DNA of 50,469 nucleotides, from the IMG/VR virus record IMGVR_UViG_3300004883_000001, positions 1-50,469 of that record; one strand, 5' to 3'. Shown one piece after another: positions 17,708-31,774 of the stretch (position 1 is the stretch's first letter; every line of letters begins with the position of its first letter). The notes beneath the pieces were generated by a model. The model saw only the letters and a program-made list of their open reading frames with translations, searched no databases and was not told where the DNA came from. The stretch is from a virus. The position numbers and the translations under genes are program-made.

Positions 17708-17786
17708 AGACCGCTGGTTCGACTGGCAAACGCTAGTCGTCGTCATTATAAGCGGGCTCGTTCTCGGTTTCTCGGCGGTGCTATAA
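17700..17786 (+). CDS. Possible 28-aa single-TM peptide
   Basis: MHKDRWFDWQTLVVVIISGLVLGFSAVL with AGAGGGG upstream. Confidence 0.3.
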   Translation: MHKDRWFDWQTLVVVIISGLVLGFSAVL

Positions 17787-17922
17787 TGGTCCGTTTAATC
17801 TTTCAACTAATTGGATTGTATATCGTATGCAATCTTTTCAACATTCTGTGGGGACGGTCCCCGTAGGATAAATCGGCCAACTGTAGGCAATCAAGTCTAT
17901 GGCCAACCATGAAATGAGGAGG

Positions 17923-17933
17923 TAATCTATCAT
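17923..17933 (+). promoter_or_regulatory. 11-mer TAATCTATCAT, copy 3
   Basis: Exact match lying between SD GAGGAGG and the start codon. Its last two bases are the AT of ATG 17932. Confidence 0.6.
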
Positions 17934-18495
17934 GGCTACTACTAAAACTAAAAAGCCTGTCACTAAAACTGAGGCAGGCGGTAACGGTGTCACTATGACA
18001 CAAGTTAACACAGCTATCAAGTCTATGGTGAAAGCTTCCCAAGCTTTCGGTGTCGCTGCTGCGTCGGCTGCTGTCTTGGCTTTAATGCATTGCCAACAAC
18101 ACGGTGACGCGACTGGACTGCAACGCCTATACGCTGCCTTAGGTGAGACTGGTGTTCGCCTAGGCCCTATCCGTCAGAAGGCTCTGATGGCTTGGCTGCA
18201 GGTTTATAGCCCCGTCCGGAAAAATAACAAGTCAGGCGACTTTGGCCTTATCAAGGCTACAGCCCCTAACTATGTCGCGTTTGACACCGACGAAGCGGAA
18301 GCTAACCCGTTTCTCGACTTCATTCCCGACAGTACTCGCGGCCCCGTTATGCAATCGAATGTTAAGATTGCCAAACGTATCGCTTCTATGGTCACTAAAG
18401 ACTATGGTGACGCATGGGAAGGTGCTGCTCTGAACGTTGACGCTGTTATGGCAGAGGTTCGTCGCCAGCTTACTCCAACGGCTGATGGCGCTTAA
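17932..18495 (+). CDS. Hypothetical early protein
   Basis: 187 aa with a strong SD (GAGGAGG, 9-nt spacing) and a Lys/Thr-rich N-terminus. Confidence 0.7.
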   Translation: MATTKTKKPVTKTEAGGNGVTMTQVNTAIKSMVKASQAFGVAAASAAVLALMHCQQHGDATGLQRLYAALGETGVRLGPIRQKALMAWLQVYSPVRKNNKSGDFGLIKATAPNYVAFDTDEAEANPFLDFIPDSTRGPVMQSNVKIAKRIASMVTKDYGDAWEGAALNVDAVMAEVRRQLTPTADGA

Positions 18496-18787
18496 CCTCC
18501 CAAAGCTGGTTGAGGACTACTATGTGTGGTCTATAGCTTATTACCGTCAGGGGCGTTCGCTCGCCTCTGATAACATGTTTGACACATGCTGTAAGATATT
18601 GCTTGCAAACTATTCCAAGACACCAGACAGTTTTAAAAAGCTGACCACTAAATCGGATTTGAAATGCGGTACTGGTATGACGTTAACATATGAAAACCTC
18701 TACAACTCTGTAGAAGCTGACGTGTGCGACGCTGTATCTCACCGTTTAGAGAATGACAGGGAGTGGCCAGCCGAGTTGAATTACTAA
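18485..18787 (+). CDS. Hypothetical protein
   Basis: Track ORF 18437..18787. The internal ATG at 18485 overlaps the upstream stop by 11 nt. Its stop TAA is the start of 11-mer copy 4. Confidence 0.55.
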   Translation: MALNLPKLVEDYYVWSIAYYRQGRSLASDNMFDTCCKILLANYSKTPDSFKKLTTKSDLKCGTGMTLTYENLYNSVEADVCDAVSHRLENDREWPAELNY

Positions 18788-18795
18788 TCTATCAT
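18785..18795 (+). promoter_or_regulatory. 11-mer TAATCTATCAT, copy 4
   Basis: Exact match; its TAA is the stop codon of ORF 18485..18787. It shares the 18-mer CTAATCTATCATCAACA with copy 7. Confidence 0.6.
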
Positions 18796-18888
18796 CAACA
18801 GCAGGCCGCTTATTTGACGTAAGTAGGTTTGCAAACAACCTCGTAAGCTTGACGCTTGCGGGGTATTTTTATGGAAAGGAGTCCAGTC

Positions 18889-19026
18889 ATGCTTGATGTA
18901 ATGCTGTCTTCTGGAGAGGTTATCACACTTATCGCTGCATGGGGTGTGGTTATATATTTATTGATGTGCCTTATACTACTTATAGTGGGTATGTGGGTCA
19001 TAGGCTCGGAGATTAACCGAGGTTGA
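18889..19026 (+). CDS. 45-aa single-TM membrane peptide
   Basis: AAAGGAG lies 7 nt upstream of the ATG. Sequence: MLDVMLSSGEVITLIAAWGVVIYLLMCLILLIVGMWVIGSEINRG. Below the track threshold; the antisense track ORF 18810..19001 is judged a shadow. Confidence 0.5.
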   Translation: MLDVMLSSGEVITLIAAWGVVIYLLMCLILLIVGMWVIGSEINRG

Positions 19027-19109
19027 AATGTCCGTGAGCAACGCTACGTAGTGCGGGCCGACGCTGTATTCGGTCACATACAGCAGCTATTTAATTAATG
19101 GAGAGTGTT

Positions 19110-19370
19110 ATGCTTATCGAAATCGCCCTTATGTGTGCCTACGTATTCATAGGTATAGTTACTTTAGCTGTCTTACGGTCTTGCGAAGGTATTCAAGACT
19201 TCAACGAAGAAGATGTAGGATTGAACTTCTCTGTTGTTCTTGCGTGGCCTGTAGCATGGTTCTTTGGTTCAATACTGGCCCTCTACTGGGCATCCATGAA
19301 AGGCTCTGACCTTTTAATCAAGGTTTTTGAGGCCTTAAAGCCCAGTAAATCTGAAAAGTCTTCCCGCTAA
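19110..19370 (+). CDS. 2-TM membrane protein, paralogue A
   Basis: Track ORF 19098..19370. I prefer ATG 19110 because GGAGAG then serves as the SD. A 19-nt leader TTAATTAATGGAGAGTGTT is identical to that of the next gene. Confidence 0.65.
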   Translation: MLIEIALMCAYVFIGIVTLAVLRSCEGIQDFNEEDVGLNFSVVLAWPVAWFFGSILALYWASMKGSDLLIKVFEALKPSKSEKSSR

Positions 19371-19424
19371 CCCTTTGAAATCATTGATTAAACAAGGGTA
19401 ATTAGTTAATTAATGGAGAGTGTT

Positions 19425-19664
19425 GTGACTACAGTTATAATTCTAGGGGTCTACCTACTAATCGGTGTAGTCTTTCTTGGTGTTGTGCAATTCCTCTCGG
19501 AGGATGTCCTACGACAAAAAGAGGATACGTTATTAGCGATAATAGTATTAATAGGATGGCCTCTAGTTGCACTGGTCGTTGCAGGAGAAGCTCTCTATAA
19601 TTTACTCTTTCTATTATCTACCTATGTCACTGAAATCATCAAGAAAATCAGTACATCTCGCTAA
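19425..19664 (+). CDS. 2-TM membrane protein, paralogue B
   Basis: Track ORF 19413..19664. GTG 19425 follows the same 19-nt leader and the topology is the same (TM - acidic loop - TM with a WP motif). Its stop TAA starts 11-mer copy 5. Confidence 0.65.
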   Translation: MTTVIILGVYLLIGVVFLGVVQFLSEDVLRQKEDTLLAIIVLIGWPLVALVVAGEALYNLLFLLSTYVTEIIKKISTSR

Positions 19665-19672
19665 TCTATCAT
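19662..19672 (+). promoter_or_regulatory. 11-mer TAATCTATCAT, copy 5
   Basis: Exact match; its TAA is the stop of 19425..19664. GGAGG lies 4 nt downstream. Confidence 0.6.
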
Positions 19673-19688
19673 CATTTGGAGGACCACA

Positions 19689-19817
19689 GTGGCACCTTTT
19701 AGAACATATCCGCGTCGGCGTCGGCGTTGGCTATCGCAGCTCAACAACGTTAACGTAGAGAGTCCTGGAGAACGGGTTCTCTTCTGCCGTGCGAAAAAAC
19801 GACGGAGAGTGAAATGA
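19689..19817 (+). CDS. Possible 42-aa Arg-rich peptide
   Basis: GGAGG-N7-GTG start. Sequence: MAPFRTYPRRRRRWLSQLNNVNVESPGERVLFCRAKKRRRVK. It has an ATGA overlap with the next gene. Confidence 0.35.
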   Translation: MAPFRTYPRRRRRWLSQLNNVNVESPGERVLFCRAKKRRRVK

Positions 19818-20410
19818 CTGAACAGCTTATTATCCGAGGCGACACGGTCCGCTTAAAGACAGAAAGAAGACATATCAAGGTCACTCGCGTGTACGGACGG
19901 CGTGTTGCCAGTTGTTTCGATGAAGGTGGCCTGGTATTCGACGGGTACTACATCACCTCTGGTATGACGGTATCTGAAAAGTCGGTGTCAACGGCTATCC
20001 GCGTAAAGAAAGGTGAGTCTGAACAGCTTACTACAGATACGGCCCAGGAAAACGGCGAGTATGTCATGTTCAACGATAACAATGTTGTGCAGGCTAATCG
20101 CTGGGTGCTGGATGAAGGGTCTTGGTATTACTACAGCGATGCGGAGAAGAGATGGAAACGTGTCGCTAGAAGGGCGTATCCTTTAAAGGTCTTATATGCC
20201 TCTCCTACTCCCCTTGGATTTAAGCCTTTCGACCTTTTGGAGGGCAAACCTTACAGGCCTTTTGTCACATGGCACGGGTTTCACTTCCCTTCTGCACACT
20301 ATAAACCTATGAAGGAGAAATCCTGTCGTCTATTGCAGGTCTGTGCAGCCTATGAGCAATGGGTGAAAGACGGTTGCCCTAGGCCTCCCACCCCTGCCCC
20401 GTTTAAGTAA
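19814..20410 (+). CDS. Hypothetical protein
   Basis: 198 aa with GGAGAG upstream. The stop context is TAATCTTTT. Confidence 0.7.
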   Translation: MTEQLIIRGDTVRLKTERRHIKVTRVYGRRVASCFDEGGLVFDGYYITSGMTVSEKSVSTAIRVKKGESEQLTTDTAQENGEYVMFNDNNVVQANRWVLDEGSWYYYSDAEKRWKRVARRAYPLKVLYASPTPLGFKPFDLLEGKPYRPFVTWHGFHFPSAHYKPMKEKSCRLLQVCAAYEQWVKDGCPRPPTPAPFK

Positions 20411-20437
20411 TCTTTTAAATAAACTCTCTGGAGAAAT

Positions 20438-20800
20438 ATGATGAATAATCTATCATGGCTGCTATACCTCGCTGAGGTTTGCGGTAACCTTAAAATCGTA
20501 TCGGAAGCCTTTTTTTGGGTTGGAGCGATTCTCTTAGCTGTAGCAGGAATATGTTTAGGTCCTGTCGCTGAAATGGACTCTGATGACGAGATGTGGGGTA
20601 GAGGGATTAGTGTAGCTAAAAAATCTATCCCTCTATTAGTAGTAGGAGTAGTCCTCACAGTCTTCGTCCCTTCGAAAACAACAGTTTACCTTATCGCTGC
20701 CTCTGAAATGGGCGAAGAGGCTATGAACACCGAGACAGCACAGAAGATAGGCGACTATCTAGACGTGCTTCTGGACGAACTAACAGGTGTGGCTGAGTAA
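20438..20800 (+). CDS. Membrane protein (about 3 TM)
   Basis: 120 aa with GGAG upstream, hydrophobic segments and an acidic C-terminus. Confidence 0.7.
   Translation: MMNNLSWLLYLAEVCGNLKIVSEAFFWVGAILLAVAGICLGPVAEMDSDDEMWGRGISVAKKSIPLLVVGVVLTVFVPSKTTVYLIAASEMGEEAMNTETAQKIGDYLDVLLDELTGVAE
20446..20456 (+). promoter_or_regulatory. 11-mer TAATCTATCAT, copy 6
   Basis: Exact match, inside codons 3-7 of ORF 20438 (read as N-N-L-S-W). It is followed by GGCT, as in copy 3. Confidence 0.55.
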
Positions 20801-21034
20801 TCGTTCCAGGACAGCCGCGTCCTGTTCCATATTAGTGACGGACATGTTACCTGCTGTGTCATGTGACCTCTGAGTCGTCAATTTTCGAACGGCCTCGCGG
20901 CTGTCACCCTTTTCATCTCAGTTCCGTGGGCGGTTTGCTGACGACCTCTTCGCGTACACTCATAAAACCTCGTTTAAGCATCTTTAATGCATCCTTCCTT
21001 GACTGGACCTGATGCGCGCCTCTATGCGACCATC

Positions 21035-21062
21035 TTGAGTGAGAAGTAACTGGCGCTATAAA
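21035..21062 (+). promoter_or_regulatory. sigma70-like promoter candidate (TTGAGT-N16-TATAAA)
   Basis: Located in the 340-nt ORF-free gap upstream of ORF 21140. Confidence 0.3.
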
Positions 21063-21121
21063 AGTTAGATATTGTGAATGTACTAACTATACTCCTGTTC
21101 AATCGGGAGGCTGAGACCATC

Positions 21122-21132
21122 TAATCTATCAT
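21122..21132 (+). promoter_or_regulatory. 11-mer TAATCTATCAT, copy 7
   Basis: Exact match, 8 nt upstream of ATG 21140 and 23 nt upstream of ATG 21155. Confidence 0.6.
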
Positions 21133-21139
21133 CAACAAC

Positions 21140-22192
21140 ATGGAGGGCACGGAGATGCCTACTTATCCAGAAATAACTGACCCTCAAACTACAGCATTTC
21201 GTGCCCTGTTTGATAAACGTTCTGTTAAAAGTCGGAAGACGTTCTACGCGAACTATAAAGTCAAACACCTTAACAATGCTTTGAAGGGCAGCATTTCTTA
21301 CTTCCGTAATGACACGGTTTTCTCTGGCCTCGCTATTGAAGGTAAAATCGGTCCAGCGTATGCCGCCCAGTTGTCTCGCTCCTGTAGTGGTAAGTATTCT
21401 GTACTAAGACAGAGAGGGGATTTCACAAAGAAGGTTCAAGAGCTTCGATTGTTTTTGTCTATGTGCAACACTGACTATAACCAAGAGCTTCTGAACCACT
21501 TAGTGGAGTCTACGAGAGGTTCTTTCGCCCCTAGAACTATCGGGTACCCAAACTGTTGCGGGGCGTACCTCTACGATGGCCTTAAGCTCCCGTATGAACG
21601 GATTAACATGGACGCCAAAACCTTGAAAGAGTGGGCGGCGGGTATATCTCAGGTTGGCTCTGGTCCTGGACGTTTCATTGTTTTACCTGAACATGTTGCA
21701 GACGAGTACGGCCAACCGTTTGAAGACATAGGTTTCGTTAGGTTCCTTACCTACGACAACGTCGTCTACTTCTTCCGTGCTAAGCTCAGGGACCACCATG
21801 CAGCCCGTGTCAAGAAACAGAAGTTGACCTTCGTTCCTAAGTTAAAAAAGCTTCAAGAGGATGCAAGAGAAGTCGAGCTCAACAGCTCAGCTTTCCCTAA
21901 GATTCCGAGCCAATCTATCAAAGGCTGCTTGAGTATTTACTCTGGTTTTAGTTCTAACAGTAAGTTAGGGCCTAGGTCTTTTACATCCTCTCTGGCTCCC
22001 GTGGATATGTTGCTCTTAAGGGAGCTTAACACCGACAAACAGATAACTAAACATTATCGCCACGTGGAAGCGTTAGGGTTTAAACCTCTCTATGATGGGT
22101 TTGAGCCTTTCCAGAACTCGGTACACTCTGACAGTAACCGTTGGCTGTTGCCTATGTACCGCATCAACCCCTTCTACGAAGAGGACCGATAG
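21140..22192 (+). CDS. Hypothetical protein
   Basis: 350 aa. The alternative start ATG 21155 has GGAGG/GGAG upstream. No motif recognised. Confidence 0.7.
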   Translation: MEGTEMPTYPEITDPQTTAFRALFDKRSVKSRKTFYANYKVKHLNNALKGSISYFRNDTVFSGLAIEGKIGPAYAAQLSRSCSGKYSVLRQRGDFTKKVQELRLFLSMCNTDYNQELLNHLVESTRGSFAPRTIGYPNCCGAYLYDGLKLPYERINMDAKTLKEWAAGISQVGSGPGRFIVLPEHVADEYGQPFEDIGFVRFLTYDNVVYFFRAKLRDHHAARVKKQKLTFVPKLKKLQEDAREVELNSSAFPKIPSQSIKGCLSIYSGFSSNSKLGPRSFTSSLAPVDMLLLRELNTDKQITKHYRHVEALGFKPLYDGFEPFQNSVHSDSNRWLLPMYRINPFYEEDR

Positions 22193-22193
22193 C

Positions 22194-22727
22194 ATGGCAA
22201 AGAAAGCCCCTAAGGTTGAGACTCCTTTTGTCTGGAAGCCTTTAACTATCTGTTTGAAGTATCCTGCTACTCCTATCACTTTTACAGAGCTATCGGAACA
22301 GCAGCAGGAGCTATCCGCTCAACGCCCTATAATGTCGTTTGAAGAGGATTTCTCAACGGTAAATATTGAGTCTGATGGTAAGAACCCTACATATATTGAG
22401 ATTGATGACATACCTCCTCTTGAAGGTTCGGTGGATGAAGGAGGTTTTTCTAAGGGAAGCCTTTGTCAGTACATCTTTATGTCGGAGGACGAGGAGTTAA
22501 TGATTGCCTTCCTTACGTCTCCTAGCGCTGTTCGTGCAGGTATGCTACGTACACAGGAGTTTGACGACGGAAGTCGCCTATACTTCATAGGCTTCCAAGA
22601 CACTACCGAGGCTACATACTTCTATTGGGAGATGGCTTATGAGCCAGGACTAATGGAACGTGTCACCTTTAACGGTCACCGAGTTATCTGCGGGGAAGAG
22701 TTAATCTCCCGTGGGTCAGCTATCTAA
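22194..22727 (+). CDS. Hypothetical acidic protein
   Basis: Track ORF 22092..22727. ATG 22194 starts 2 nt after the upstream stop with GAGGA upstream. Its stop TAA starts 11-mer copy 8. Confidence 0.65.
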   Translation: MAKKAPKVETPFVWKPLTICLKYPATPITFTELSEQQQELSAQRPIMSFEEDFSTVNIESDGKNPTYIEIDDIPPLEGSVDEGGFSKGSLCQYIFMSEDEELMIAFLTSPSAVRAGMLRTQEFDDGSRLYFIGFQDTTEATYFYWEMAYEPGLMERVTFNGHRVICGEELISRGSAI

Positions 22728-22735
22728 TCTATCAT
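22725..22735 (+). promoter_or_regulatory. 11-mer TAATCTATCAT, copy 8
   Basis: Exact match; its TAA is the stop of 22194..22727. It lies 19 nt upstream of ATG 22754. Confidence 0.6.
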
Positions 22736-22753
22736 CATCTGCGAGGTCATAAC

Positions 22754-23218
22754 ATGACAACATCTCTTAACCCCACAATCATCCCTTCGGACAGGCTCCT
22801 ACAGGCTGGTGACATCTTTGCTGTGTATGGTACGTTACGTAAAGGTAACGGTAACTACAAGTACACTGGTATGCGTACAGGCGCTAAGTTCCTTGGAGAG
22901 GAGACCGTACAGGGCACCTTGTATCACCTAGGAGGCTTCCCAGGGCTTACTCAAGAGGCTTCTCCTGTTCCAGTGACCGTAGAGGTATATAAACTTCTAG
23001 ACCCCGCCTTAGGGGTCCGCTTAGACCGTCTGGAGGGCTATAAACCTGCTAAGCCGGAGGGTAGTATGTATATCCGTGCTAAGACGGTGACCAACAGTGG
23101 TCGTGAGGCGTTTATCTACTACTACAACTCTCTTCGTGTTCCTGCCCGTAGGGTAATCCTGTCAGGTGACTGGCATAACCGTGGTGAGATAGGGGCTCTT
23201 GAGAAGGCCGCCTCTTAA
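22754..23218 (+). CDS. Gamma-glutamyl cyclotransferase-like protein (AIG2/GGACT family)
   Basis: 154 aa. The family pattern is present: IFAVYGTLRKGNGNY ... GTLYHLGGFPGL ... VEVYKL ... LDRLEGY. Confidence 0.8.
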   Translation: MTTSLNPTIIPSDRLLQAGDIFAVYGTLRKGNGNYKYTGMRTGAKFLGEETVQGTLYHLGGFPGLTQEASPVPVTVEVYKLLDPALGVRLDRLEGYKPAKPEGSMYIRAKTVTNSGREAFIYYYNSLRVPARRVILSGDWHNRGEIGALEKAAS

Positions 23219-23296
23219 AAGGGTATATATCAACCCCCACAGGCGACAAGTCTATTATACCACATATTTTCAATTTGTCAAGCGAAAAATAAAAAA

Positions 23297-24142
23297 ATGT
23301 CTAAAAAAAGCAAGCGTAGGGCACGCAACAAGCGAAAGCTCGAAGAGCAACGTAAAAACACAGAGGAGTCAAACGTGATTCTACCGTTCAAGAAGAAGAA
23401 AGCCAACAAACGTATCATCAAGGTTCATGTGGTCGAAGCCCCAGGGACGTATGGCTCCTCTATCTACCGTGCGTGGGTCGCGTGCGACCCCTTCATGGAG
23501 GTATGTAGAAAGCCTATGGACGCAGATGTTTTGCTGTTCACTGGCGGTGCTGACGTATCCCCTCAAATCTACGGACAGCCTCCCCATAAGCGGACACATT
23601 GCGATGTTAATCGTGACAATTATGAGACAGCGTTGTTCGCCATAGGCAAAGACAAACTCAAGGTAGGCATCTGTCGAGGCGCCCAGCTATTGAACGTCCT
23701 GTCTGGTGGCTCTATGCTGCAACATGTTTCAGGGCACACGTCATCACATGACCTCGTCCTCCTGCATGAGAAGAATGCTATAATGCGTGATGTGCCTTCC
23801 ACTCACCATCAGATGATGCTGCCCTCGCCTCACGTACACACTAGAAGCATCCTTGCTACGGCCTATAAAGATGGGAAACAGTGTATAGCCTCCCCTATGG
23901 AAAAGGAAGTCCCTACGGAGATGATGCGGGAGCGTTGGAAGTTCTTAGAGAAATATAAGTCAAAAGACTTCAACCCGTTCCAAATGGACGCTGAGATTTT
24001 GTATTACTATAACACCAACTCGTTGTGTATACAAAGCCATCCCGAGAAACGGAAATGCCCCTCACAGTTCACCGCTTATTGTAACAATCTAATTGTCACT
24101 CTGGCAGAACGCCACATCAAAAGATTAGCGGAAGCTAGCTAA
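23297..24142 (+). CDS. Class-I glutamine amidotransferase / peptidase C26 (gamma-glutamyl hydrolase, PuuD-like)
   Basis: FTGGADVSPQIYG ... GICRGAQLLNVLSGGSMLQHV ... STHHQMM. The first 26 codons are polybasic and lack an SD. GTG 23375, preceded by GAGGAG-N6, is an alternative start. Confidence 0.8.
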   Translation: MSKKSKRRARNKRKLEEQRKNTEESNVILPFKKKKANKRIIKVHVVEAPGTYGSSIYRAWVACDPFMEVCRKPMDADVLLFTGGADVSPQIYGQPPHKRTHCDVNRDNYETALFAIGKDKLKVGICRGAQLLNVLSGGSMLQHVSGHTSSHDLVLLHEKNAIMRDVPSTHHQMMLPSPHVHTRSILATAYKDGKQCIASPMEKEVPTEMMRERWKFLEKYKSKDFNPFQMDAEILYYYNTNSLCIQSHPEKRKCPSQFTAYCNNLIVTLAERHIKRLAEAS

Positions 24143-24150
24143 TCTATCAT
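24140..24150 (+). promoter_or_regulatory. 11-mer TAATCTATCAT, copy 9
   Basis: Exact match; its TAA is the stop of 23297..24142. It lies 28 nt upstream of ATG 24178. Confidence 0.6.
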
Positions 24151-24177
24151 TACACGTCACATTTCTAGGAGATTATT

Positions 24178-25293
24178 ATGTGCGGACACGTCGGAGTTGC
24201 AGGAGATTTAACTGCAGCAGCAGCAAGAGCCTTTAAGGATATGCTGTATATGGACGCCCTTAGGGGCCGTCACGGTACAGGTATATTTACAGTGCCTTTC
24301 CGAGGAGACAGGATGTTGAATGGCGGTAACATCGTCAAAGCCCCCTTCTCGGCTGAGGTGTGTCTTCAAAACAAAGCTTTTGAAAAGGCTGCCGAGGACC
24401 CCACCTCTGCGGTCATCATGGGACATAACCGTCACGCTACCATCGGCCAACACATCCAAGGGAACACCCACCCTTTCCGTCAAGGAGACATAGTCGGAGC
24501 ACATAACGGCACCGTATCCGCAGGTAACCGTACCTTAAAAGTCAAAGGCTCTTTTGGCACGGACTCTGAGAAAATCATGGCATCTATCAGTCAGTACGGT
24601 ATTCAAGATACTATCAAGGAAATGATTCCTTGCTCTCAAGGTGCTTGGGCGTTTGTCTGGTATGATTTTCATTCCAATGAGATTAACTTCCTTAGGAACG
24701 AGTACCGTCCTTTCTTCTACGGGTTTTCTAAAGACCGTGGTATTATGTACTGGGCCAGCGAAGCTCATATACTTCGTGCTGCTTGTGCTCGCCGCGGAGC
24801 TGACCTTGATAAGGTCTATGAGCTGCCTGTGGACACTCACTTGCGTTGGACTGTCCCTGGGGTAGGAGAGGTCTTCGGCAAGGAAACGCGGAGTAAGTGT
24901 GTCGGAAAAAAGCGGCCAGCTCTTCCAGCTTACAAAGGCAATACCAGCAGGGTTCGGAATACGGGGACTCGGAATGGGACGACCACTGGTTTTGGTGTGC
25001 GTATTCCCTCTGACTTCTCTGTGGAGCTGCAAGACTATACCTTATTCGACAACTCTGATGTAGTCGAGCTGTTCCAAACCAAGAAACAGTGTATTTGGTG
25101 TCACGAAGAGGTGACTGCTGCCGACATCAAAAACAAGGGAGGGGCTGCTGTTGTAGCCAGAAACAGTGTTGTGTGTGCTAAGCATGCTAAACTACCTATC
25201 TTCCAAGCCACTCTCAAGGCTCGTATATCCAACGAGATAGCGAGCAGTAAGAGTAAGAGTAAAACTGCAAAGAGCTGTTCCGCAGCTAACTGA
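24178..25293 (+). CDS. Class-II (Ntn, N-terminal Cys) glutamine amidotransferase-domain protein with a C-terminal Cys/His cluster
   Basis: 371 aa. It starts MCGHVGVAG (Cys2 nucleophile) and contains GHNRHATIG ... HPF ... GAHNGTV ... GTDSEKI. The C-terminus has CIWCHEE...VCAKH. AGGAG SD. Confidence 0.75.
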   Translation: MCGHVGVAGDLTAAAARAFKDMLYMDALRGRHGTGIFTVPFRGDRMLNGGNIVKAPFSAEVCLQNKAFEKAAEDPTSAVIMGHNRHATIGQHIQGNTHPFRQGDIVGAHNGTVSAGNRTLKVKGSFGTDSEKIMASISQYGIQDTIKEMIPCSQGAWAFVWYDFHSNEINFLRNEYRPFFYGFSKDRGIMYWASEAHILRAACARRGADLDKVYELPVDTHLRWTVPGVGEVFGKETRSKCVGKKRPALPAYKGNTSRVRNTGTRNGTTTGFGVRIPSDFSVELQDYTLFDNSDVVELFQTKKQCIWCHEEVTAADIKNKGGAAVVARNSVVCAKHAKLPIFQATLKARISNEIASSKSKSKTAKSCSAAN

Positions 25294-25331
25294 GACCAAC
25301 CACCCATCAGCAAACTAACAAGGAGTTCAAT

Positions 25332-26144
25332 ATGTCTGCTGCAATTCTTATCGGGTCTGACCCCGAAGTTTTCCTTCGAAACACTTCTACAGGTGCTTTC
25401 GCTAGTGCCCACGGTGTAATCCCTGGGTCCAAGGAAGAACCTTTCACGGTGCCTCTAGGTGCTGTCCAAGTGGACGGAATGGCTTGTGAGTTCAACACCG
25501 ACCCTGCGAAGACTCGGAAGGAGTTCATCGACAATGTCACGGGAGTGTTTAAAACGTTGGACGAGATGCTCCCTGATAATCTATCATTGGTTCCTGGGGT
25601 TCCTGTCGCACATTTCTCGGAAGAGGTGTTCGCTGCACAGCCTGCTGAGGCTCTGGAGCTTGGATGTGAGCCTGACTACGACGCCTACACAGGAAGCGAG
25701 AACCCTCGACCTAACGCCCACAACAAGCCTATGCGTACCGCTGCTGGTCACGTTCATATCGGCTTCAAGGATACCGAGGACCCTCTTGGTATGTTGCATA
25801 TGATGGAGTGTTGTGACTTGGTGAAGATGCTGGACGTCTTCCTCGGTTTATATAGCTTGACCTTCGACACTGACACTGAGCGTCGCTCTCTGTACGGTAA
25901 AGCTGGTGCCTTCCGCCCTAAACCTTATGGGGTCGAGTACCGCGTGCTGTCCAATGCATGGCTGGTCTCGGAGGAGCTGATTGGTGATGTCTACGACATA
26001 GCCACCCTCACAACGGAACTGTACCTTGAAGGTGCCCGTCTAGACCAGGACACGTATGACCGTGCCCGTATGGCTATCAACACCAGCAACGTTAAGGTCG
26101 GCGCTAAAATCCTCGCAGATGCGAAAAAGTTTTTTCAAATCTAA
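25332..26144 (+). CDS. COOH-NH2 ligase, phiEco32-like type 2 (glutamine-synthetase/GCS2-like fold)
   Basis: 270 aa with IGSDPEVFL ... VDGMACEFN ... AAGHVHIGF ... YGVEYRVLSNAW, the motif set I recall for the Pfam COOH-NH2_lig family. AAGGAG SD. Confidence 0.7.
   Translation: MSAAILIGSDPEVFLRNTSTGAFASAHGVIPGSKEEPFTVPLGAVQVDGMACEFNTDPAKTRKEFIDNVTGVFKTLDEMLPDNLSLVPGVPVAHFSEEVFAAQPAEALELGCEPDYDAYTGSENPRPNAHNKPMRTAAGHVHIGFKDTEDPLGMLHMMECCDLVKMLDVFLGLYSLTFDTDTERRSLYGKAGAFRPKPYGVEYRVLSNAWLVSEELIGDVYDIATLTTELYLEGARLDQDTYDRARMAINTSNVKVGAKILADAKKFFQI
25577..25587 (+). promoter_or_regulatory. 11-mer TAATCTATCAT, copy 10
   Basis: Exact match inside ORF 25332..26144, read as D-N-L-S-L. Confidence 0.55.
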
Positions 26145-26171
26145 TCTAACTTAACCCTCTAGGAGATTGAT

Positions 26172-26999
26172 ATGGCTTTAAAAGCTAAAGTCGTTAAGCT
26201 GCCTAAATCCAAGTCCCCTGACTTTGGGTCGACTAAAGACTGGTCGCTGCGATTACATCAAACCTTGGTCTGGTATAAGGACCAACCTTTCTATGTTCGG
26301 GATGTCAAAAGTAAAGACACTCCTAAGACGGCTGAGCTTAGACGGGCCTACCGAGCAGCGGTAGACACTTATCAAAATGCTGCTTCCGAAGCGGAACATA
26401 TTAAAGGCCGTGAGATTGCTCGACGTCTTGACCGTGAGCTGAAAGCTTACATGAAAAGTGCTAAAGCTTCTTCGGTTGCCAAAGGTCAGATATTCCCTTT
26501 GAAGGCGGACGGTAAGGAAGTTGACATAGGAAAAAATAACAGCTCTCACTCTGTAACCAGTTTAGACCTAAGGCTCCGACCTATGGGTTTTTATAACCGA
26601 AATCTGGAAGACAGTAGGATTGCTACTTATGTTTCACGTCTAGCTCGGCAGCAGAGCCGGCACGGGCTAAGCTCATCAAACACCCTTGCTAGCAGCGTAG
26701 GTAGGGGACGTTACGCGGACTTCCATCCTGCGGACAAGGAGTTTCTTACAAGTCTTTACGGGATTTACCCTTCTCTAGAAGAGTGTTTAGACACCCTCTT
26801 CCCAATGGAAGGGACTAACTCCATGGCATTCTGCAGGAAATACGCTATACAGGTCGATGCTGTGGGCCACGTCGTCCTTTTCTACCGAACCAAAATGGTG
26901 GGCATGTCAAGCGACGAAGGTAAGACCTTCAAGCTTCTCGGGCGTCACACCTACCTTAAAGAAGACCTCACAGATACAGGAGTTACCATTGACTCGTAA
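26172..26999 (+). CDS. Hypothetical protein embedded in the amidoligase operon
   Basis: 275 aa with an AGGAG SD. No motif recognised. It is preceded by the degenerate 11-mer TAATCTAACTT (26142). Confidence 0.7.
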   Translation: MALKAKVVKLPKSKSPDFGSTKDWSLRLHQTLVWYKDQPFYVRDVKSKDTPKTAELRRAYRAAVDTYQNAASEAEHIKGREIARRLDRELKAYMKSAKASSVAKGQIFPLKADGKEVDIGKNNSSHSVTSLDLRLRPMGFYNRNLEDSRIATYVSRLARQQSRHGLSSSNTLASSVGRGRYADFHPADKEFLTSLYGIYPSLEECLDTLFPMEGTNSMAFCRKYAIQVDAVGHVVLFYRTKMVGMSSDEGKTFKLLGRHTYLKEDLTDTGVTIDS

Positions 27000-27048
27000 T
27001 AGTAAAAACCCTCTAAACTCAGCGGAGAAGCTGGTAGCTGCAAACCCT

Positions 27049-28059
27049 ATGAAGACCACTGTACGGGAGTATTTTGGACCTTTCAGGAGTGAGACGGACG
27101 GTCGTCGTATCGGTATTGAAGTCGAGGTGGAAACCGCTAATGACCATTACCCCAACGCTGGACGTGTTAACGATACCTCTAAATACTGGCTCGCCACTAT
27201 TGACGGGTCTCTTCGCAACGCTAAGGGGACTGGTGCAGGTGGACAGGAGTACATCATCAAAAACTCTATCCCTTTTGGAGAGGCCGAACCAGCGTTAAAG
27301 GAATTGGAAACCCTTTTGAAAGGAGCTAGGTCTAAGGTCCGTAAATCTAACCGAACCTCTGTCCACGTCCATGTTAACGTACAGGACATGACCCTTACCG
27401 AGCTGATGACTTTCTTCTGTCTCTACTATACGGTGGAGCCTATCCTATGTCGTTACAACGGGTTTGAACGGGAGAACAATCTGTTCGCTTTACAGGCCAT
27501 CACCTCCGAGACTATCTTAGCTAATCTATCATATTTCCTTCGAAACCGACGTTTCAGCAACAAGACGAAATACTCTGCATTGAATTTTATGACCTTGGGT
27601 ACCGGTTCCCTCGGTACTGTCGAGTTCCGTGCAGGAGCTGGAATCGAGAAGAGCCCTATGGAGGTTCTACCTTGGATTGCGCTTATAGAGTCCTTGTTCG
27701 ACTCTTTAGGGGCGTTCAAAAAACCTGAGGACGTCCTTTACGCTATCTCTGAACGCGGCCCTCTTCGTTTCCTTCAAAAGTACGTACCCTACATTTTCGA
27801 GGTAGGGACTAAAGTGTTTGAATTGGACGAGCTAGACCACTTGATTATGCAGTCCACTCGTAACGCTCAAGGCTTGGCCTACGAGATTGATTGGGGCGAC
27901 TACAAACCTACCAAAAAGAAGGCTGGTAGTAAAACTTCTTTAACACCAGTTTACGGCGCTAGAGCCAATGCCGCCCCACCGCCACAGCCACGGCCGAGGA
28001 CCGTCGCTGCCCCTCATCTAGGCGTAGCTGCCGAACTCGCTGAATTTGACTGGGACTAA
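27049..28059 (+). CDS. Amidoligase (Amidoligase_2-type, GS-like fold)
   Basis: Track ORF 26857..28059; ATG 27049 is the first start after the upstream stop. Motifs: RRIGIEVEVE ... TIDGSL ... TSVHVHVNV ... GTVEFRAGAG. The C-terminus is Pro/Ala-rich. Confidence 0.7.
   Translation: MKTTVREYFGPFRSETDGRRIGIEVEVETANDHYPNAGRVNDTSKYWLATIDGSLRNAKGTGAGGQEYIIKNSIPFGEAEPALKELETLLKGARSKVRKSNRTSVHVHVNVQDMTLTELMTFFCLYYTVEPILCRYNGFERENNLFALQAITSETILANLSYFLRNRRFSNKTKYSALNFMTLGTGSLGTVEFRAGAGIEKSPMEVLPWIALIESLFDSLGAFKKPEDVLYAISERGPLRFLQKYVPYIFEVGTKVFELDELDHLIMQSTRNAQGLAYEIDWGDYKPTKKKAGSKTSLTPVYGARANAAPPPQPRPRTVAAPHLGVAAELAEFDWD
27522..27532 (+). promoter_or_regulatory. 11-mer TAATCTATCAT, copy 11
   Basis: Exact match inside ORF 27049..28059, read as A-N-L-S-Y. 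Confidence 0.55.
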
Positions 28060-28096
28060 ACTTTTAACACCACTTTGACATTATAAGGAGAACCAC

Positions 28097-29224
28097 ATGT
28101 CAACCAAAAAGAAACGCACAACAATTTTCGTGCACCCTTACAACGGAGCTTCGGAGGGTGCTAAAACCCTTACCGCAGCCTTAGGAGGGAAACGTATCCT
28201 CACTGGAGGACGCTCAGCGTTCAAATATTCTAAGGGCAAGACTGTCATCAACTGGGGGTCGTCGGAGTATCACGTAGGCAAGGACGTCCCTATGCTCAAC
28301 CCGCCTGCTGCGGTAGCTAAAGCTTCTAACAAGCTGACATTCTTTCAGTCTTTGAAGGGCAGCAGCACACGCATCGTACCGTTCACAACAGACGTGGAAG
28401 AGGTGCAGGAATGGTTGAACGCGGGCTCTGTTGTGTGTGCCCGAACTAAATTAACTGGACATTCTGGCGAAGGTTTGGTGATTTTAGGTGATAAAGAGGT
28501 TGACATTGCCTCTGCGAAGCTGTATACTAAGTACGTGAAGAAAGCTCGTGAGTATCGAGTCCACGTAGTTGACGGTAAAGTCATCCGTGTTCAGAAGAAG
28601 ATTCTTCGGCCCGAGCTGACTGAACGTATCCGAGACCCTAAGGATGAGTTCTCTAAGGATGACGTCAACTGGGAAGTCCGTAACCACGGCAACGGTTTCG
28701 TATACGTCACTGACGGAGTCGAAGAAGATTGTCCTAAAGACGTTCTATCACAGGCTCGTTCTGCTATATGCCGTACAGGTCTTGACTTCGGAGCTGTGGA
28801 CGTAATCTGGAGCAACAAGAAGCAGCAAGCTTTTGTTCTTGAGATTAATTGTGCCCCTGGCCTCGAAGGAGGCACTACTACTGCCTATGTAGATGCTTTC
28901 CAAGCCCTCATTGCGAACGGCGTCCCTACTAAAAAAAAGACCTTAAAGGTTGAAAAACGTCCCTGGGATACGGTTAACATAGTCAACGTGGAGCTGTGGG
29001 GGGGCAGAGCATGCCTACGAGCTGTCATAGACCATGCCAGAGGGGTCAGAAACGACACCGACTGGTGTAATTGGTCAGAGACAGGGGAAGCTATGTTCCC
29101 TTACAGCGAGGACGACGCTACAAGATTAGAAGCCGACTTAGAAGAGGCTATGGGAAATCCGCCTTCTAAATGGGTTCAGATGTTGGCTCAAGATGTCTGC
29201 GAATACCAAGGCATCAACTACTAA
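28097..29224 (+). CDS. ATP-grasp ligase
   Basis: 375 aa with KLYTKYVKKAREYRVHVVDGKVIRVQKK ... GAVDVIW ... FVLEINCAPGLEG (E-x-N metal site). AAGGAG SD. Confidence 0.8.
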   Translation: MSTKKKRTTIFVHPYNGASEGAKTLTAALGGKRILTGGRSAFKYSKGKTVINWGSSEYHVGKDVPMLNPPAAVAKASNKLTFFQSLKGSSTRIVPFTTDVEEVQEWLNAGSVVCARTKLTGHSGEGLVILGDKEVDIASAKLYTKYVKKAREYRVHVVDGKVIRVQKKILRPELTERIRDPKDEFSKDDVNWEVRNHGNGFVYVTDGVEEDCPKDVLSQARSAICRTGLDFGAVDVIWSNKKQQAFVLEINCAPGLEGGTTTAYVDAFQALIANGVPTKKKTLKVEKRPWDTVNIVNVELWGGRACLRAVIDHARGVRNDTDWCNWSETGEAMFPYSEDDATRLEADLEEAMGNPPSKWVQMLAQDVCEYQGINY

Positions 29225-29230
29225 GAATAT

Positions 29231-29318
29231 GTGCGAGTATGCAAGTGGTTAAAGCACGCAGTCTGTAAAACTGCTCTCGTATTGGGGTACGCTGGTTCGA
29301 ATCCAGCCTCGCACACCA
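29231..29318 (+). tRNA. tRNA-Tyr (anticodon GTA), class II with long variable arm, CCA encoded
   Basis: Acceptor GTGCGAG/CTCGCAC; 3-bp D stem TGC/GCA; anticodon stem GCAGT/ACTGC with loop CTGTAAA; variable arm TCTCGTATTGGGGTAC; T arm GCTGG-TTCGAAT-CCAGC; discriminator A followed by CCA. Confidence 0.9.
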
Positions 29319-29332
29319 ATAACATACCTTGC

Positions 29333-29369
29333 ACAGGGGTGGTACAATCTATCATCCCTGTGTCTTTTT
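29333..29369 (+). terminator. Hairpin plus T-tract after the tRNA (possible intrinsic terminator) carrying 11-mer copy 12 in its loop
   Basis: CACAGGG (29333-39) pairs with CCCTGTG (29356-62), with a 16-nt loop, then TCTTTTT. Confidence 0.4.
29345..29355 (+). promoter_or_regulatory. 11-mer variant CAATCTATCAT, copy 12
   Basis: 10/11 match (AATCTATCAT is exact), 41 nt upstream of ATG 29396. Confidence 0.55.
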
Positions 29370-29395
29370 CAACTATAATAATAAGGAGGACATGG

Positions 29396-29593
29396 ATGCG
29401 TTGCCATATTTGCGACCGTAACATAGCCCACCCCTCAAAACACCCTATTTCAGGTGAGTACGAACCCTGCAATGTTTGCTTGGAAGCTGCTCTACCTAAC
29501 GCCCACTTTCTCGATACTGAGATGGGCAACCTTTTAACCGATGAAGACTTGTCGACGCTCGAAGAATTCGAGGTATCTCCCGTTGACGATTAA
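29396..29593 (+). CDS. 65-aa zinc-ribbon protein with an acidic tail
   Basis: AAGGAGG SD. MRCHICDR...EPCNVCLE has a CxxC-N17-CxxC arrangement. The track ORF 29231..29593 begins inside the tRNA, so the internal ATG is preferred. Confidence 0.6.
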   Translation: MRCHICDRNIAHPSKHPISGEYEPCNVCLEAALPNAHFLDTEMGNLLTDEDLSTLEEFEVSPVDD

Positions 29594-31292
29594 AATCGGT
29601 AAAGGCCCCTGTGGGTCCTGCGGGAGCAGCGATGCCAAGATGACCTATGAAGATGGGCATACGCATTGTTTCTCCTGTGGGGCCCATACAGGTCCTATTA
29701 ATACCACTGGCGATAAGCTCCGCCCAACCTATAATCAAGAAGAAGAAGAGAGCCCTATTACTCCAAACCCCTTACCACCCATCCCTAGTGCATCTGACTA
29801 CGTAGCACTAAAGGACCGAGGCATATCCGCTGAGACTGCTAAAGTCTACGGCGTCACCAACAACTTAGGGGAAGGTATGACAAAACATATCTACCCTTAC
29901 TTCGACTCGCATGGGACCTACGTTGCAGCGAAGTTACGAAGCCACACGAAGAAATTCAAGTGGGCAGGAAATACCAAGACTGCGGCCTTATTCGGTCAGT
30001 CTAATTTCCCGCCTAACTCTGCTAAGCAAATCACCATTACGGAGGGTGAGTGTGACGCTATGGCAGCCTATCAGATGCAGGGCAGTAAATACCCTGTAGT
30101 GTCTGTACACAGTGCCAGCTCTGCTGTTAAAAACTGTGCTGAGAACTTCAAGTATTTGGACTCCTTCGAGACCATCGTCATCTGTTTCGATGCTGATGAA
30201 GGTAAGTTCAACCCCATGACAGGTCAAACTGGGTATCCTGGGCAGGAAGCCGCTGATGCGGTAGCACGTCTTTTCGCCATTGGAAAAGTACGTGTGGTCA
30301 CCTTAAATAAACATAAAGACGCCAATGATTATCTCTTAGAGGGAGATGGCGGTGCCTTTATGCAGGAGTGGTGGAATGCCCCAACCTTTACCCCTACTGG
30401 TCTCGTAGCTGCCAAGGACATGTGGGACAAAATCAAGGAACCTAAGAGACACGATTCAATCGCGTATCCGTGGTCTGTCCTACAAACTCTCACCTACGGT
30501 ATCCGTCTATCGGAGATGGTAACCGTTACAGCGGAGACAGGTATTGGTAAGACTACTATCCTCAAAGAGGTTCAGCATCATATCCTCTCTACTGTGGAAG
30601 ATGCAGGGGTGGGTATACTCCATCTCGAAGAGCCTAATGACGATACCGCCTTAGGTCTTATGTCCATTACTGCCAACAAACCTCTACATCTGCCAGATGT
30701 CCGAGAGGAGGTAGAGACAGAGGAGCTGCGGGAGTACTTCGACCAGACGTTGAACAACGACCGAGTAATCATGTTCGACCACTTTGGCTCTAACTCAATT
30801 GACATCATTATCTCTGCGATTCGCTATATGGTCAACATGGGATGTAAGTACATCTTCCTAGACCATCTCAGCATCCTTGTAAGTGACCAGAGTGGCGATG
30901 AACGTAAACAACTGGACGAGGCTGCCACAAAGCTTAAAACCCTATGTATGGAGCTTAACGTCGCCCTCATCTGTGTTATCCATCAGAACAGAAATGGACA
31001 AATCCGAGGCACCGCTGGTGTGGAGCAGCTCAGTAACATCGTTATTAAGATGAACCGCGACAAGAAAGCCAAGGACCCATTTGTGCGTAACGTCACTACC
31101 ATTGAGGTGGAGAAGAACCGCTTCTGTGGGCGGACAGGGCCTGCTGGCTTCCTCTTCTACGAGAATGAGACAGGGCGGCTTAGAGAATTAGACGACCACG
31201 AGACTCAACGCTTTCAGGAGGGTGTCGCCCCTGAGGGTTTCGTGTTCGAGAACGACAAACCAAAAGAAGAAGGATGGGACGATGAGCCTTAA
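29541..31292 (+). CDS. Bifunctional primase-helicase (T7 gp4-like)
   Basis: Zn finger CGSCGSS...HCFSCG; TOPRIM ITITEGECDAMAAYQ and FDADEGK; helicase Walker A TAETGIGKTT and Walker B IFLDHL. In-frame TTG 29583 with GAGGT upstream is an alternative start. Confidence 0.9.
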   Translation: MKTCRRSKNSRYLPLTIKIGKGPCGSCGSSDAKMTYEDGHTHCFSCGAHTGPINTTGDKLRPTYNQEEEESPITPNPLPPIPSASDYVALKDRGISAETAKVYGVTNNLGEGMTKHIYPYFDSHGTYVAAKLRSHTKKFKWAGNTKTAALFGQSNFPPNSAKQITITEGECDAMAAYQMQGSKYPVVSVHSASSAVKNCAENFKYLDSFETIVICFDADEGKFNPMTGQTGYPGQEAADAVARLFAIGKVRVVTLNKHKDANDYLLEGDGGAFMQEWWNAPTFTPTGLVAAKDMWDKIKEPKRHDSIAYPWSVLQTLTYGIRLSEMVTVTAETGIGKTTILKEVQHHILSTVEDAGVGILHLEEPNDDTALGLMSITANKPLHLPDVREEVETEELREYFDQTLNNDRVIMFDHFGSNSIDIIISAIRYMVNMGCKYIFLDHLSILVSDQSGDERKQLDEAATKLKTLCMELNVALICVIHQNRNGQIRGTAGVEQLSNIVIKMNRDKKAKDPFVRNVTTIEVEKNRFCGRTGPAGFLFYENETGRLRELDDHETQRFQEGVAPEGFVFENDKPKEEGWDDEP

Positions 31293-31336
31293 TTTTCTTA
31301 CGTACGAACAGGCAGTAGAGACTTCGTGTCTCGCCC

Positions 31337-31774
31337 ATGTTGACTGAACTACTGCTCCTGCTACAAACTGAACACACGTGTCTCTCCAAGACTATTTTTG
31401 GGGAGGCCCGTTCGGAGCCAATAGTATCTCAACTGGACGTAGCACTGACAGTGTTGAATAGGGTCAACAGCCCGCTGTTCCCCGACACTATCTGTGGGGT
31501 AACAAACCAGCCCTACCAGTACACGTCCCGTAATGAGTTCGACACCAACTACTGGTTCACCGAGAGAGTGTTTGTCGGCTTCGAGACGACCCTTGGTGAG
31601 AGGAAAGCTAAGGAGAAGTCCCAAATCCTAGCCACCTTTGCTATGGAGAACTATAAGGAGCTTACCAATCCTATAATCTATCATTATCACGCGGCTGGTC
31701 ACAACCCTGTATGGGCTAGTGAGCTGACCTATTCCCACACTAGCGGGACCCACCTATTTTATACAGGATATTAA
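31337..31774 (+). CDS. SleB-type cell-wall hydrolase domain protein
   Basis: 145 aa. TIFGEARSEPIVSQLDVALTVLNRVNSPLFPDTICGVTNQPYQYTS fits the Hydrolase_2 (SleB) core. Confidence 0.7.
   Translation: MLTELLLLLQTEHTCLSKTIFGEARSEPIVSQLDVALTVLNRVNSPLFPDTICGVTNQPYQYTSRNEFDTNYWFTERVFVGFETTLGERKAKEKSQILATFAMENYKELTNPIIYHYHAAGHNPVWASELTYSHTSGTHLFYTGY
31674..31684 (+). promoter_or_regulatory. 11-mer TAATCTATCAT, copy 13
   Basis: Exact match inside ORF 31337..31774, read as I-I-Y-H-Y. It lies 92 nt upstream of ATG 31776 and is the last copy on the arm. Confidence 0.55.

Follow-up and report, generated by a model that had tools for sequence, protein, structure and literature searches.

What do seven closely spaced phage genes for ligases, amidotransferases, and gamma-glutamyl-cleaving enzymes accomplish together during infection? 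The question is raised by IMG/VR virus record IMGVR_UViG_3300004883_000001, the whole of which (50,469 nucleotides) is referred to here as the window. The genes lie on the + strand at 22754-29224, with intergenic gaps of 27-78 nt, and an initial annotation made from the sequence alone had described them as a gamma-glutamyl/amidoligase operon of the phiEco32 type. Computational analysis of the cluster and its relatives indicates that it is a complete and ordinary copy of the phage amidoligase module of phiEco32 type, with active sites predicted to be intact. Its function is tentatively read below as the stepwise building and trimming of glutamyl or glutaminyl adducts, more likely on a macromolecule than as a free metabolite. 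All seven genes are present as open reading frames (ORFs), as follows.

22754-23218, + strand: GGACT/AIG2-like gamma-glutamylamine cyclotransferase, 154 amino acids (Pfam PF06094, 1.7e-18)
23297-24142, + strand: class-I glutamine amidotransferase (GATase-I)/peptidase C26, 281 amino acids (Pfam PF07722, 2.9e-17)
24178-25293, + strand: N-terminal nucleophile (Ntn, class-II) glutamine amidotransferase, 371 amino acids (Pfam GATase_6, 3.3e-15)
25332-26144, + strand: COOH-NH2 ligase type 2, 270 amino acids (PF14395, 37 bits against a cut-off of 25; phrog_3815, 1e-83)
26172-26999, + strand: protein of unknown fold, 275 amino acids (no Pfam match; function-unknown PHROG only)
27049-28059, + strand: Amidoligase_2, 336 amino acids (phrog_7469, 1e-41; Pfam PF12224, 19.4 bits against a cut-off of 22)
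28097-29224, + strand: RimK-like ATP-grasp ligase, 375 amino acids (phrog_2599, 8e-81; no Pfam match)

Pfam, PHROG, and profile searches support every enzyme family that the initial annotation had named, and the fifth product, which it had left without an assignment, remains so. The motifs that it had quoted coincide with invariant columns of family alignments of 19-62 relatives, from which the conserved residues given below were read. In these alignments the expected catalytic residues are invariant or nearly so in all enzyme families of the module; the enzymes are thus under purifying selection as active catalysts. The phiEco32-type label is likewise borne out by the families and the gene order. 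The neighborhood to which it refers, after which PF14395 is named (“Phage phiEco32-like COOH.NH2 ligase-type 2”), shares with the window the COOH-NH2 ligase type 2, the Amidoligase_2, the ATP-grasp ligase, the Ntn amidotransferase, and the GGACT protein, as well as its site upstream of primase/helicase and its restriction to tailed phages. According to the passages of two later papers that cite the work (PMC10580990; PMC11706807), the module was predicted by Iyer, Abhiman, Burroughs, and Aravind in 2009.

Which of the seven genes belong to the module proper was addressed by applying iterated hidden Markov models (HMMs) to 86 related loci and the window (n = 87). The COOH-NH2 ligase, the Ntn amidotransferase, and the 275-aa family are found in 87/87 loci, the last of these always between the two ligases of glutamine synthetase (GS) fold, while the amidoligase and the ATP-grasp ligase are each found in 86/87 and the class-I amidotransferase in 80/87. 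The GGACT gene occurs in 19/87 loci only, being missing in ~78%, and therefore appears to be an accessory to a core of six genes. The seven-gene operon of the initial annotation thus stands as to the presence of all its members, and as a conserved unit it shrinks to six. The order GATase-I, Ntn, COOH-NH2 ligase, 275-aa family, amidoligase, ATP-grasp is found in 46 of the 87 loci, and 15 more have this order with GGACT in front, which is exactly the arrangement of the window. Two further ORFs, starting at 21140 and 22194, had been put forward as possible members; they match no family, have no homologue in 88 related loci, being found in the window only among the 87 compared above, and were rejected as additions to the module.

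The cluster is collinear with its counterparts in PA11, CW02, the Kuravirus Bas89, and the Bruynogheviruses MHN1 and UFV-P2. Relative to the Kuravirus and Bruynoghevirus versions, the Zobellviridae-type version represented by the window has an additional gene, that for the class-I amidotransferase/C26 enzyme, and its Ntn gene precedes those of the ligases. In Kuravirus (Bas89) and Bruynoghevirus (MHN1, UFV-P2), the order is COOH-NH2 ligase, a protein of ~190-204 aa, amidoligase, Ntn, ATP-grasp, GGACT, and primase, and no class-I amidotransferase was found by HMM in these loci. Because two GS-fold ligases flanking a protein of ~200 aa are retained there as well, this triad represents the invariant kernel of the module.

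The module is widespread among phages and restricted to them. GenBank phage records contain 319 relatives of the COOH-NH2 ligase and 313 of the ATP-grasp ligase, with near-identical distributions over genera (Pseudomonas, 121 and 120; Escherichia, 94 and 94; Vibrio, 22 and 22). The highest protein identities, 52-57%, are to Paundecimvirus (PA11, O4, TC6) and to members of the Zobellviridae recovered from oyster metagenomes. Relatives are carried by 451 IMG/VR contigs and by 4,208 clusters of a large protein collection at E ≤ 1e-5. Among 185,579 species genomes there were 30 matches, all of them on contigs of metagenome-assembled genomes, about one-third of which are 45-51 kb in length, and none in isolate genomes. 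One GenBank record, Vibrio phage V07 (L005; MT135025.1, 349 kb, UNVERIFIED_ORG), is of “jumbo” size, carries the whole podophage-type module beside a second terminase gene, and has the appearance of a chimera in which a T4-like and a Zobellviridae-like phage were assembled together.

The two GS-fold ligases, the COOH-NH2 ligase and the Amidoligase_2 protein, have no relative in the PDB that could be detected by single-sequence or profile search. The COOH-NH2 ligase family contains 47 invariant columns, including D10-P-E12, E53, H140/H142, and E202/R204, and the AlphaFold2 model of the window protein (pLDDT 96.3) matches GS (4lnn, 7.7e-5), YbdK (1r8g, TMq 0.55), plant glutamate-cysteine ligase (GCL; 2gwc), GmaS (9qur), and 1-naphthylamine GS in Foldseek searches, with E values of ~1e-4 and TM scores of 0.45-0.56. 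Since the model matches GS, YbdK, and GCL, the protein is predicted to be a minimal carboxylate-amine ligase of GS/GCL fold, in agreement with its Pfam name. The Amidoligase_2 family has invariant ExExE, HxH, and ExR columns, and an orthologue in the equivalent position passes the Pfam threshold that the window protein narrowly misses (PF12224, 45.3 bits).

The protein encoded between these two ligases has 192 representative relatives in an exhaustive HMMER search, most of them 190-220 aa long; a word-indexed protein search returned only the protein itself. A core at approximately residues 110-270 is preceded by an N-terminal extension that is common to 11 full-length relatives, and within the family G139, R156, and P200 are invariant, while N142, G165, Y199, A219, and E264 are nearly so. 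The AlphaFold model (pLDDT 93.1, pTM 0.83) has no Foldseek match in the PDB at E ≤ 1e-3, nor did querying that database with the sequence or a profile return anything. In BFVD the model matches uncharacterized phage proteins only, including the positional equivalent gp8 of CW02 (TM 0.82). As modeled, then, the protein apparently adopts a new fold, and its invariable position suggests that it may be an obligatory partner or a specificity subunit of the two ligases.

The third ligase points in a different direction from the one originally proposed. In the ATP-grasp family, K79, R116, E152, K168, D235, E249, and N251 are invariant, with D235, E249, and N251 as the Mg/ATP residues; the C-terminal extension of the window protein, from approximately residue 281, has no homologue in any related locus. 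The protein had been described as a ligase of glutathione synthetase fold, and its nearest relatives proved instead to be the RimK-family alpha-L-glutamate ligases: searched against PDB sequences, the family profile finds RimK (4iwx, 2.9e-11; also 5zct and 7qys) and then microviridin-type ligases, Ddl, cyanophycin synthetase, and LysX, and GshB is not among its matches. RimK is a protein C-terminal glutamate ligase. In NCBIfam the best matches, both weak, are MptN and the RimK family (TIGR00768, 26.6 bits against a cut-off of 143), and the Pfam RimK model gives no match at E ≤ 0.01.

The same profile also reaches the D-Ala-D-Ala ligases, more weakly, at 1e-6 and above, and this match bears on the idea that the ligases and amidotransferases alter glutamate-containing peptides of the cell envelope, such as the peptidoglycan stem peptide, and thereby block superinfection. 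A precedent for such chemistry is offered by MurT/GatD, a ligase and glutamine amidotransferase pair that amidates stem-peptide carboxylates, and the passages on the module in PMC10580990 and PMC11706807 attribute the envelope proposal to Iyer et al. (2009). However, no cluster protein has a match to Mur ligases, lipid II, or envelope functions, in searches that did not look at signal peptides or membrane segments; the phages carrying the module infect very different hosts, and for the Gram-negative ones a shared target would have to be a cytoplasmic precursor; and the module stands beside replication genes rather than lysis or host-recognition genes. An envelope role is consequently regarded here as improbable.

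In the Ntn amidotransferase of the window, the amidotransferase domain comprises residues 1-235 and is followed by a C-terminal CxxC...CxxH region. Invariant residues include the N-terminal cysteine C2 (in MCGH) as well as R85, N110-G111, and D129, which we take to be the equivalents of the glutamine-binding and oxyanion residues of GlmS. The closest PDB sequences to the family profile are the glutaminase domains of GlmS and PurF (1e-17), followed at a far greater distance by AsnB (6e-7) and the gamma-glutamyl hydrolase EgtC (3e-3), and the enzyme is probably a bona fide glutaminase able to deliver ammonia. Nine representative homologues that were examined have the Cys/His-rich C-terminal motif and no recognizable synthase domain; the motif is also present in the window copy, the C-terminal extension of which has no detectable relatives in the related loci. 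In 23 of the 120 Ntn homologues listed, a module of ~45 residues resembles RMF (Pfam PF04957), the ribosome modulation factor, which is a ribosome-binding protein. Five of nine tested homologues reach the RMF gathering score, and the motif GY-AG--G----CPY------W--G is common to the Ntn module and E. coli RMF. The module lies at approximately residues 300-360 of proteins encoded in L064 (8609-9958), L119 (4948-6267), and L120 (7001-8380), and inspection of the context established that these are the in-cluster Ntn genes. Small stand-alone RMF-like ORFs were also seen in two loci (L009, 4339-4518; L025, 20478-20705).

The hydrolytic side of the module is represented by the class-I amidotransferase and, where present, the GGACT protein. 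In the former, C126, H248, and E250 are invariant, and the family profile retrieves from the PDB Lin1909 (3fij, 3e-21), 7d4r (7e-12), and PuuD (6vtv, 8.5e-9); a lysine-rich N-terminal segment of ~70 aa in the window protein has no match in the related loci. In the latter, YGxL and D91/E94 are invariant or nearly so, and the profile, which matches YtfP (1xhs, 7e-22) as well as YkqA and mammalian GGACT (1vkb/2kl2), places the cyclotransferase in the GGACT/YtfP branch.

The chemistry available to the phage would therefore comprise the ATP-driven joining of carboxylates to amines by three ligases, of which two are GS-like and the third RimK-like, together with one glutaminase and one or two gamma-glutamyl-cleaving enzymes. 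The genes, their families and folds, the conserved active sites, the gene order, and the confinement to phages are established by the data, and from the chemistry we infer a substrate, a reaction order, and a target. The COOH-NH2 ligase and the Amidoligase_2 enzyme would each activate a carboxylate with ATP and couple it to an amine, with the ~200-aa protein as their partner, and the RimK-like ATP-grasp ligase would add at least one alpha-linked amino acid, most likely glutamate. The GlmS/PurF-type Ntn glutaminase would supply ammonia for the amidation of one activated carboxylate, and the PuuD-like C26 hydrolase, together with GGACT where present, would remove or trim gamma-glutamyl groups. 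The net product would be a small, peptide-like glutamyl or glutaminyl adduct, and the target favored here is a host or phage protein, possibly one in the translation apparatus. A macromolecular target is hinted at because the ATP-grasp ligase is nearest to RimK, because in-cluster Ntn orthologues carry an RMF-like module, because the Ntn protein ends in a Cys/His-rich region without a synthase domain, and because no transporter gene stands beside the module, its annotated neighbors in the related loci being hypothetical proteins, homing endonucleases, and tRNAs only. The RimK kinship and the RMF-like module also point, weakly, at the translation apparatus itself.

Several observations weigh against adduct building on a macromolecule. 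The relationship to RimK is at the family level only, with the profile-to-PDB match as its sole support, and GS/GCL-fold ligases, PuuD-type hydrolases, and GGACT act mostly on small molecules. The RMF-like module is missing in ~80% of the Ntn homologues listed and also in the window protein, whose subfamily of shorter proteins (357-371 aa) is without it. The 275-aa protein was considered as a C-terminal carrier or tag like LysW, Pup, or S6; its family has a variable C-terminus with no conserved Glu or Gln, and a carrier role was rejected on this account. A weak link (hhalign E values of 6e-4, at 29% probability, and 0.018) joins the 275-aa family to the proteins that occupy its position in Kuravirus and Bruynoghevirus, making these, as far as their sequences indicate, very distant relatives at best. 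Finally, the literature, including papers on HIDEN-SEQ, BASEL, and RimK, yielded no experimental substrate or product of any member of the module. Full-text searches agree with the statement in the initial annotation that a comparative-genomics prediction from 2009 is all that exists, and in the passages of later papers that treat the module this prediction is repeated as the sole functional idea (PMC10580990; PMC11706807).

A rival explanation is a small-molecule role, in which the GS-fold ligases would gamma-glutamylate a free amine, for example a polyamine, and the C26 and GGACT enzymes would release it again, serving to control pools of polyamines or of glutamate and glutamine, or using the gamma-glutamyl group as a transient protecting group during the synthesis of a metabolite. 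All of the enzymes matched by the COOH-NH2 ligase model in this context (GS, YbdK, gamma-glutamylmethylamide synthetase, and 1-naphthylamine GS) are small-molecule gamma-glutamyl ligases. The C26 enzymes nearest to the GATase-I profile include 7d4r and PuuD, a gamma-Glu-GABA hydrolase, and the cyclotransferase is of GGACT type. In the butirosin pathway, an ATP-grasp enzyme, BtrJ, is similarly paired with a GGACT-like deprotecting enzyme, BtrG. Yet no oxidase, dehydrogenase, decarboxylase, transporter, or carrier protein is found beside the module in the annotated related loci, GGACT is dispensed with in most of them, the RMF-like and Cys/His-rich modules of the Ntn protein are atypical of small-molecule synthases, and the fold matches are modest, as the TM scores above indicate. 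On balance this is a serious candidate, if an unlikely one.

The module may be compared with several characterized pathways. The RimK/RimABK system, which polyglutamylates ribosomal protein S6, includes the closest solved relative of the window ATP-grasp enzyme, and, like the module, it combines a glutamate-adding ligase with enzymes that could remove glutamates; the likeness extends to some orthologous clusters carrying the RMF-like module. In contrast, the phage module contains no S6-like substrate, RimA, or RimB, and its two GS-fold ligases and two glutaminases are without counterpart in RimABK. The Puu/Pau polyamine pathway likewise pairs a GS-fold ligase (PuuA/PauA) with a C26 hydrolase (PuuD/SpuA), and PuuD is among the solved relatives of the C26 enzyme, but no oxidase or dehydrogenase was found in the window cluster, and its ligases are minimal (270-336 aa) and similar at the level of fold only. 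Pupylation also employs two paralogous GS-fold ligases, PafA and Dop, and glutamine deamidation chemistry is available in the module as well. It differs in that no Pup-like small protein is present, the gaps between the genes leave no space for a small ORF, and the ~200-aa partner lacks a conserved C-terminal Glu or Gln.

The comparison drawn in the initial annotation was with the gamma-glutamyl (Meister) cycle, in which a GCL-fold ligase, an ATP-grasp enzyme, a gamma-glutamyl hydrolase-type enzyme, and a cyclotransferase similarly co-occur. It fits poorly, because the window ATP-grasp enzyme is RimK-like rather than GshB-like, the cyclotransferase, of the GGACT/YtfP branch, is dispensable, being missing in most copies of the module, and the Pfam and PHROG annotation of the window ORFs, which included no search aimed at gamma-glutamyl transpeptidase (GGT) or 5-oxoprolinase and covered small ORFs in part, gave no match to either enzyme. 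The Ntn enzyme, moreover, is nearest to GlmS and PurF. The cycle may thus be kept as only an analogy.

A more specific form of the macromolecular reading would direct the modification to the ribosome. The RMF-like Ntn module would dock the enzymes on the 30S subunit, where the ligases and their partner would attach, amidate, or trim groups of glutamyl type on a protein of the ribosome or on a factor close to it. We give this version only a small chance of being correct.

The genomic setting of the module is constant and raises one further explanation. In the window, the cluster lies directly upstream of genes for primase/helicase (start 29541) and DNA polymerase, and in the relatives the module always adjoins replication genes, upstream of primase/helicase, as in PA11, CW02, Bas89, and MHN1. 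It may thus be asked whether the products serve an amino-acid-type hypermodification of phage DNA or nucleotides, or a boost to nucleotide precursors. The invariable position immediately upstream of primase/helicase and DNA polymerase, the similarity of the Ntn domain to PurF and GlmS, and the presence of nucleotide-metabolism genes nearby in the window (38617, 39370) would suit such a role. On the other hand, no hydroxymethylase or ThyA-like protein, base kinase, DpdA-type transglycosylase, glycosyltransferase, or phosphoribosyltransferase (PRTase) domain was found among the annotated window ORFs, in which small ORFs are partly covered, or in the tested Ntn C-terminal regions. The base-directed enzymes of thymidine and 7-deazaguanine hypermodification clusters (dUMP hydroxymethylase, 5-hydroxymethyldeoxyuridine (5-hmdU) kinase, aGPT-Pplase, DpdA) were likewise not seen among those annotated ORFs. 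We consider a nucleotide or DNA role very doubtful.

The remainder of the window, which is an entire JGI metagenome contig, is that of a Zobellviridae-like podophage. Positions 1-99 and 50371-50469 are identical, and because of this 99-bp exact terminal overlap the genome is complete, at about 50.37 kb, and either circularly assembled or terminally redundant. Its G+C content is 48%, and a nucleotide search of the window against GenBank phages returned no match. Genes for the large terminase, head-tail adaptor, and tail proteins are on the minus strand, and a long + strand block encodes primase/helicase, a split family-A DNA polymerase, a Cas4-like exonuclease, and endonuclease I. Three other genes of this block may be mentioned. 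The end of the block carries a deoxyribonucleoside-5'-monophosphate-phosphatase-like protein (38617-39222) and a dATP/dGTP diphosphohydrolase N-terminal domain (39370-39765; PF18909, 2e-35), and a SleB-type cell-wall hydrolase (31337-31774; PF07486, 6e-13) is encoded between primase/helicase and DNA polymerase. The PADLOC defense-system models matched none of nine proteins of the module region.

How the block might be expressed is indicated by the following features in and around it.

22725-22735, + strand: 11-mer TAATCTATCAT, just upstream of GGACT; the TAA within it ends the preceding ORF
23254-23281, - strand: promoter with a perfect match to the sigma-70 consensus, TTGACA-16-TGgTATAAT, antisense to the + strand block and within the 78 nt that separate GGACT from GATase-I
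24140-24150, + strand: 11-mer, exact, upstream of the Ntn gene
25577-25587, + strand: 11-mer, exact, within the COOH-NH2 ligase gene
27522-27532, + strand: 11-mer, exact, within the amidoligase gene
29231-29318, + strand: tRNA-Tyr (GTA) (ARAGORN; Rfam, 53.6 bits)
29331-29363, + strand: intrinsic terminator hairpin, a 14-bp stem followed by CTTTTT
29345-29355, + strand: 11-mer variant CAATCTATCAT, one mismatch, forming the loop and 3' arm of this terminator

The 11-mer TAATCTATCAT occurs in 12 exact copies and one with a single mismatch, every one of them on the + strand and within 16673-31684, where 0.58 would be expected by chance. The initial annotation had five copies punctuating the block; their positions hold, although the element has 13 copies genome-wide, two of the five fall inside genes, and the fifth is part of the terminator. 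Because the 11-mer recurs in divergent relatives (L103, L064, L007, and L008, with 7-10 copies each, on the + strand only), it appears to be a conserved, phage-type, promoter-like signal of the + strand early/middle block that is not specific to the amidoligase genes. The phiEco32 sigma factor gp36 recognizes the promoter element AATGTA (PMC12276001), from which the core of the 11-mer, AATCTA, differs by one base. A promoter role is deduced from the conservation and this resemblance; against it, no homologue of a sigma factor turned up in the window, where PA11 gp012 used as a query matched nothing. In PA11 and CW02, an annotated sigma factor gene is located between primase and polymerase, the place occupied in the window by the cell-wall hydrolase gene at 31337.

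Translation signals are uneven. A strong Shine-Dalgarno (SD) sequence had been claimed for each gene, and well-placed GGAG/AGGAG sequences do precede the Ntn, COOH-NH2 ligase, 275-aa protein, and ATP-grasp genes; that of GGACT is acceptable, but none is present at the GATase-I start (23297), and that of the amidoligase (27049) is poorly spaced. The terminator has a predicted RNA folding energy of -21.3 kcal/mol (z = -5.4). The block is probably a single unit read in one direction, with promoter-like sites at several points inside it and one strong terminator after tRNA-Tyr, which in the window is co-transcribed with it. The tRNA gene follows the block directly, as previously annotated; nonetheless it was rejected as a conserved part of the module, being present in none of 60 related loci scanned. 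Genes for other tRNAs, chiefly Arg-TCT/CCT and Leu-TAA, were seen in 29 of these 60 loci, in many cases ahead of the module or in the interval from GATase-I to Ntn (e.g., L012, L021, L022, L025, L026, L031, L035, L056, L059, L062, and L063, among others). An Rfam scan of the window detected tRNA only.

The antisense sigma-70 promoter between GGACT and GATase-I is preceded by an A/T-rich stretch. An element identical in 26 of 28 positions is found in the equivalent place and orientation in the closest relative, L007, the proteins of which are only ~50-57% identical to those of the window, which suggests that an antisense transcript from this promoter may be conserved. Perfect sigma-70 consensus promoters (12/12) are abundant more generally, with 41 in 1.9 Mb of loci against ~0.7 expected by chance, and two of these are found on the minus strand of the window, in the structural-gene region at 15865 and 11134.

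The window thus presents no new type of system but a typical example of a phage module that is already known, though functionally unsolved. Few enzyme sets whose function is unknown are as widespread in tailed phages as this module, and its carriers include therapy-relevant phages of Pseudomonas, E. coli, and Klebsiella. Because its catalytic residues are kept across lineages in which the proteins are only ~35-55% identical, the module is clearly important to the phages that maintain it. What is added here is the definition of a six-gene core, the recognition of an obligatory protein of apparently new fold, and an RMF-like domain that serves as a lead toward the ribosome. If the ribosome-directed version of its function were true, the module would reprogram host translation in the replication phase of infection.

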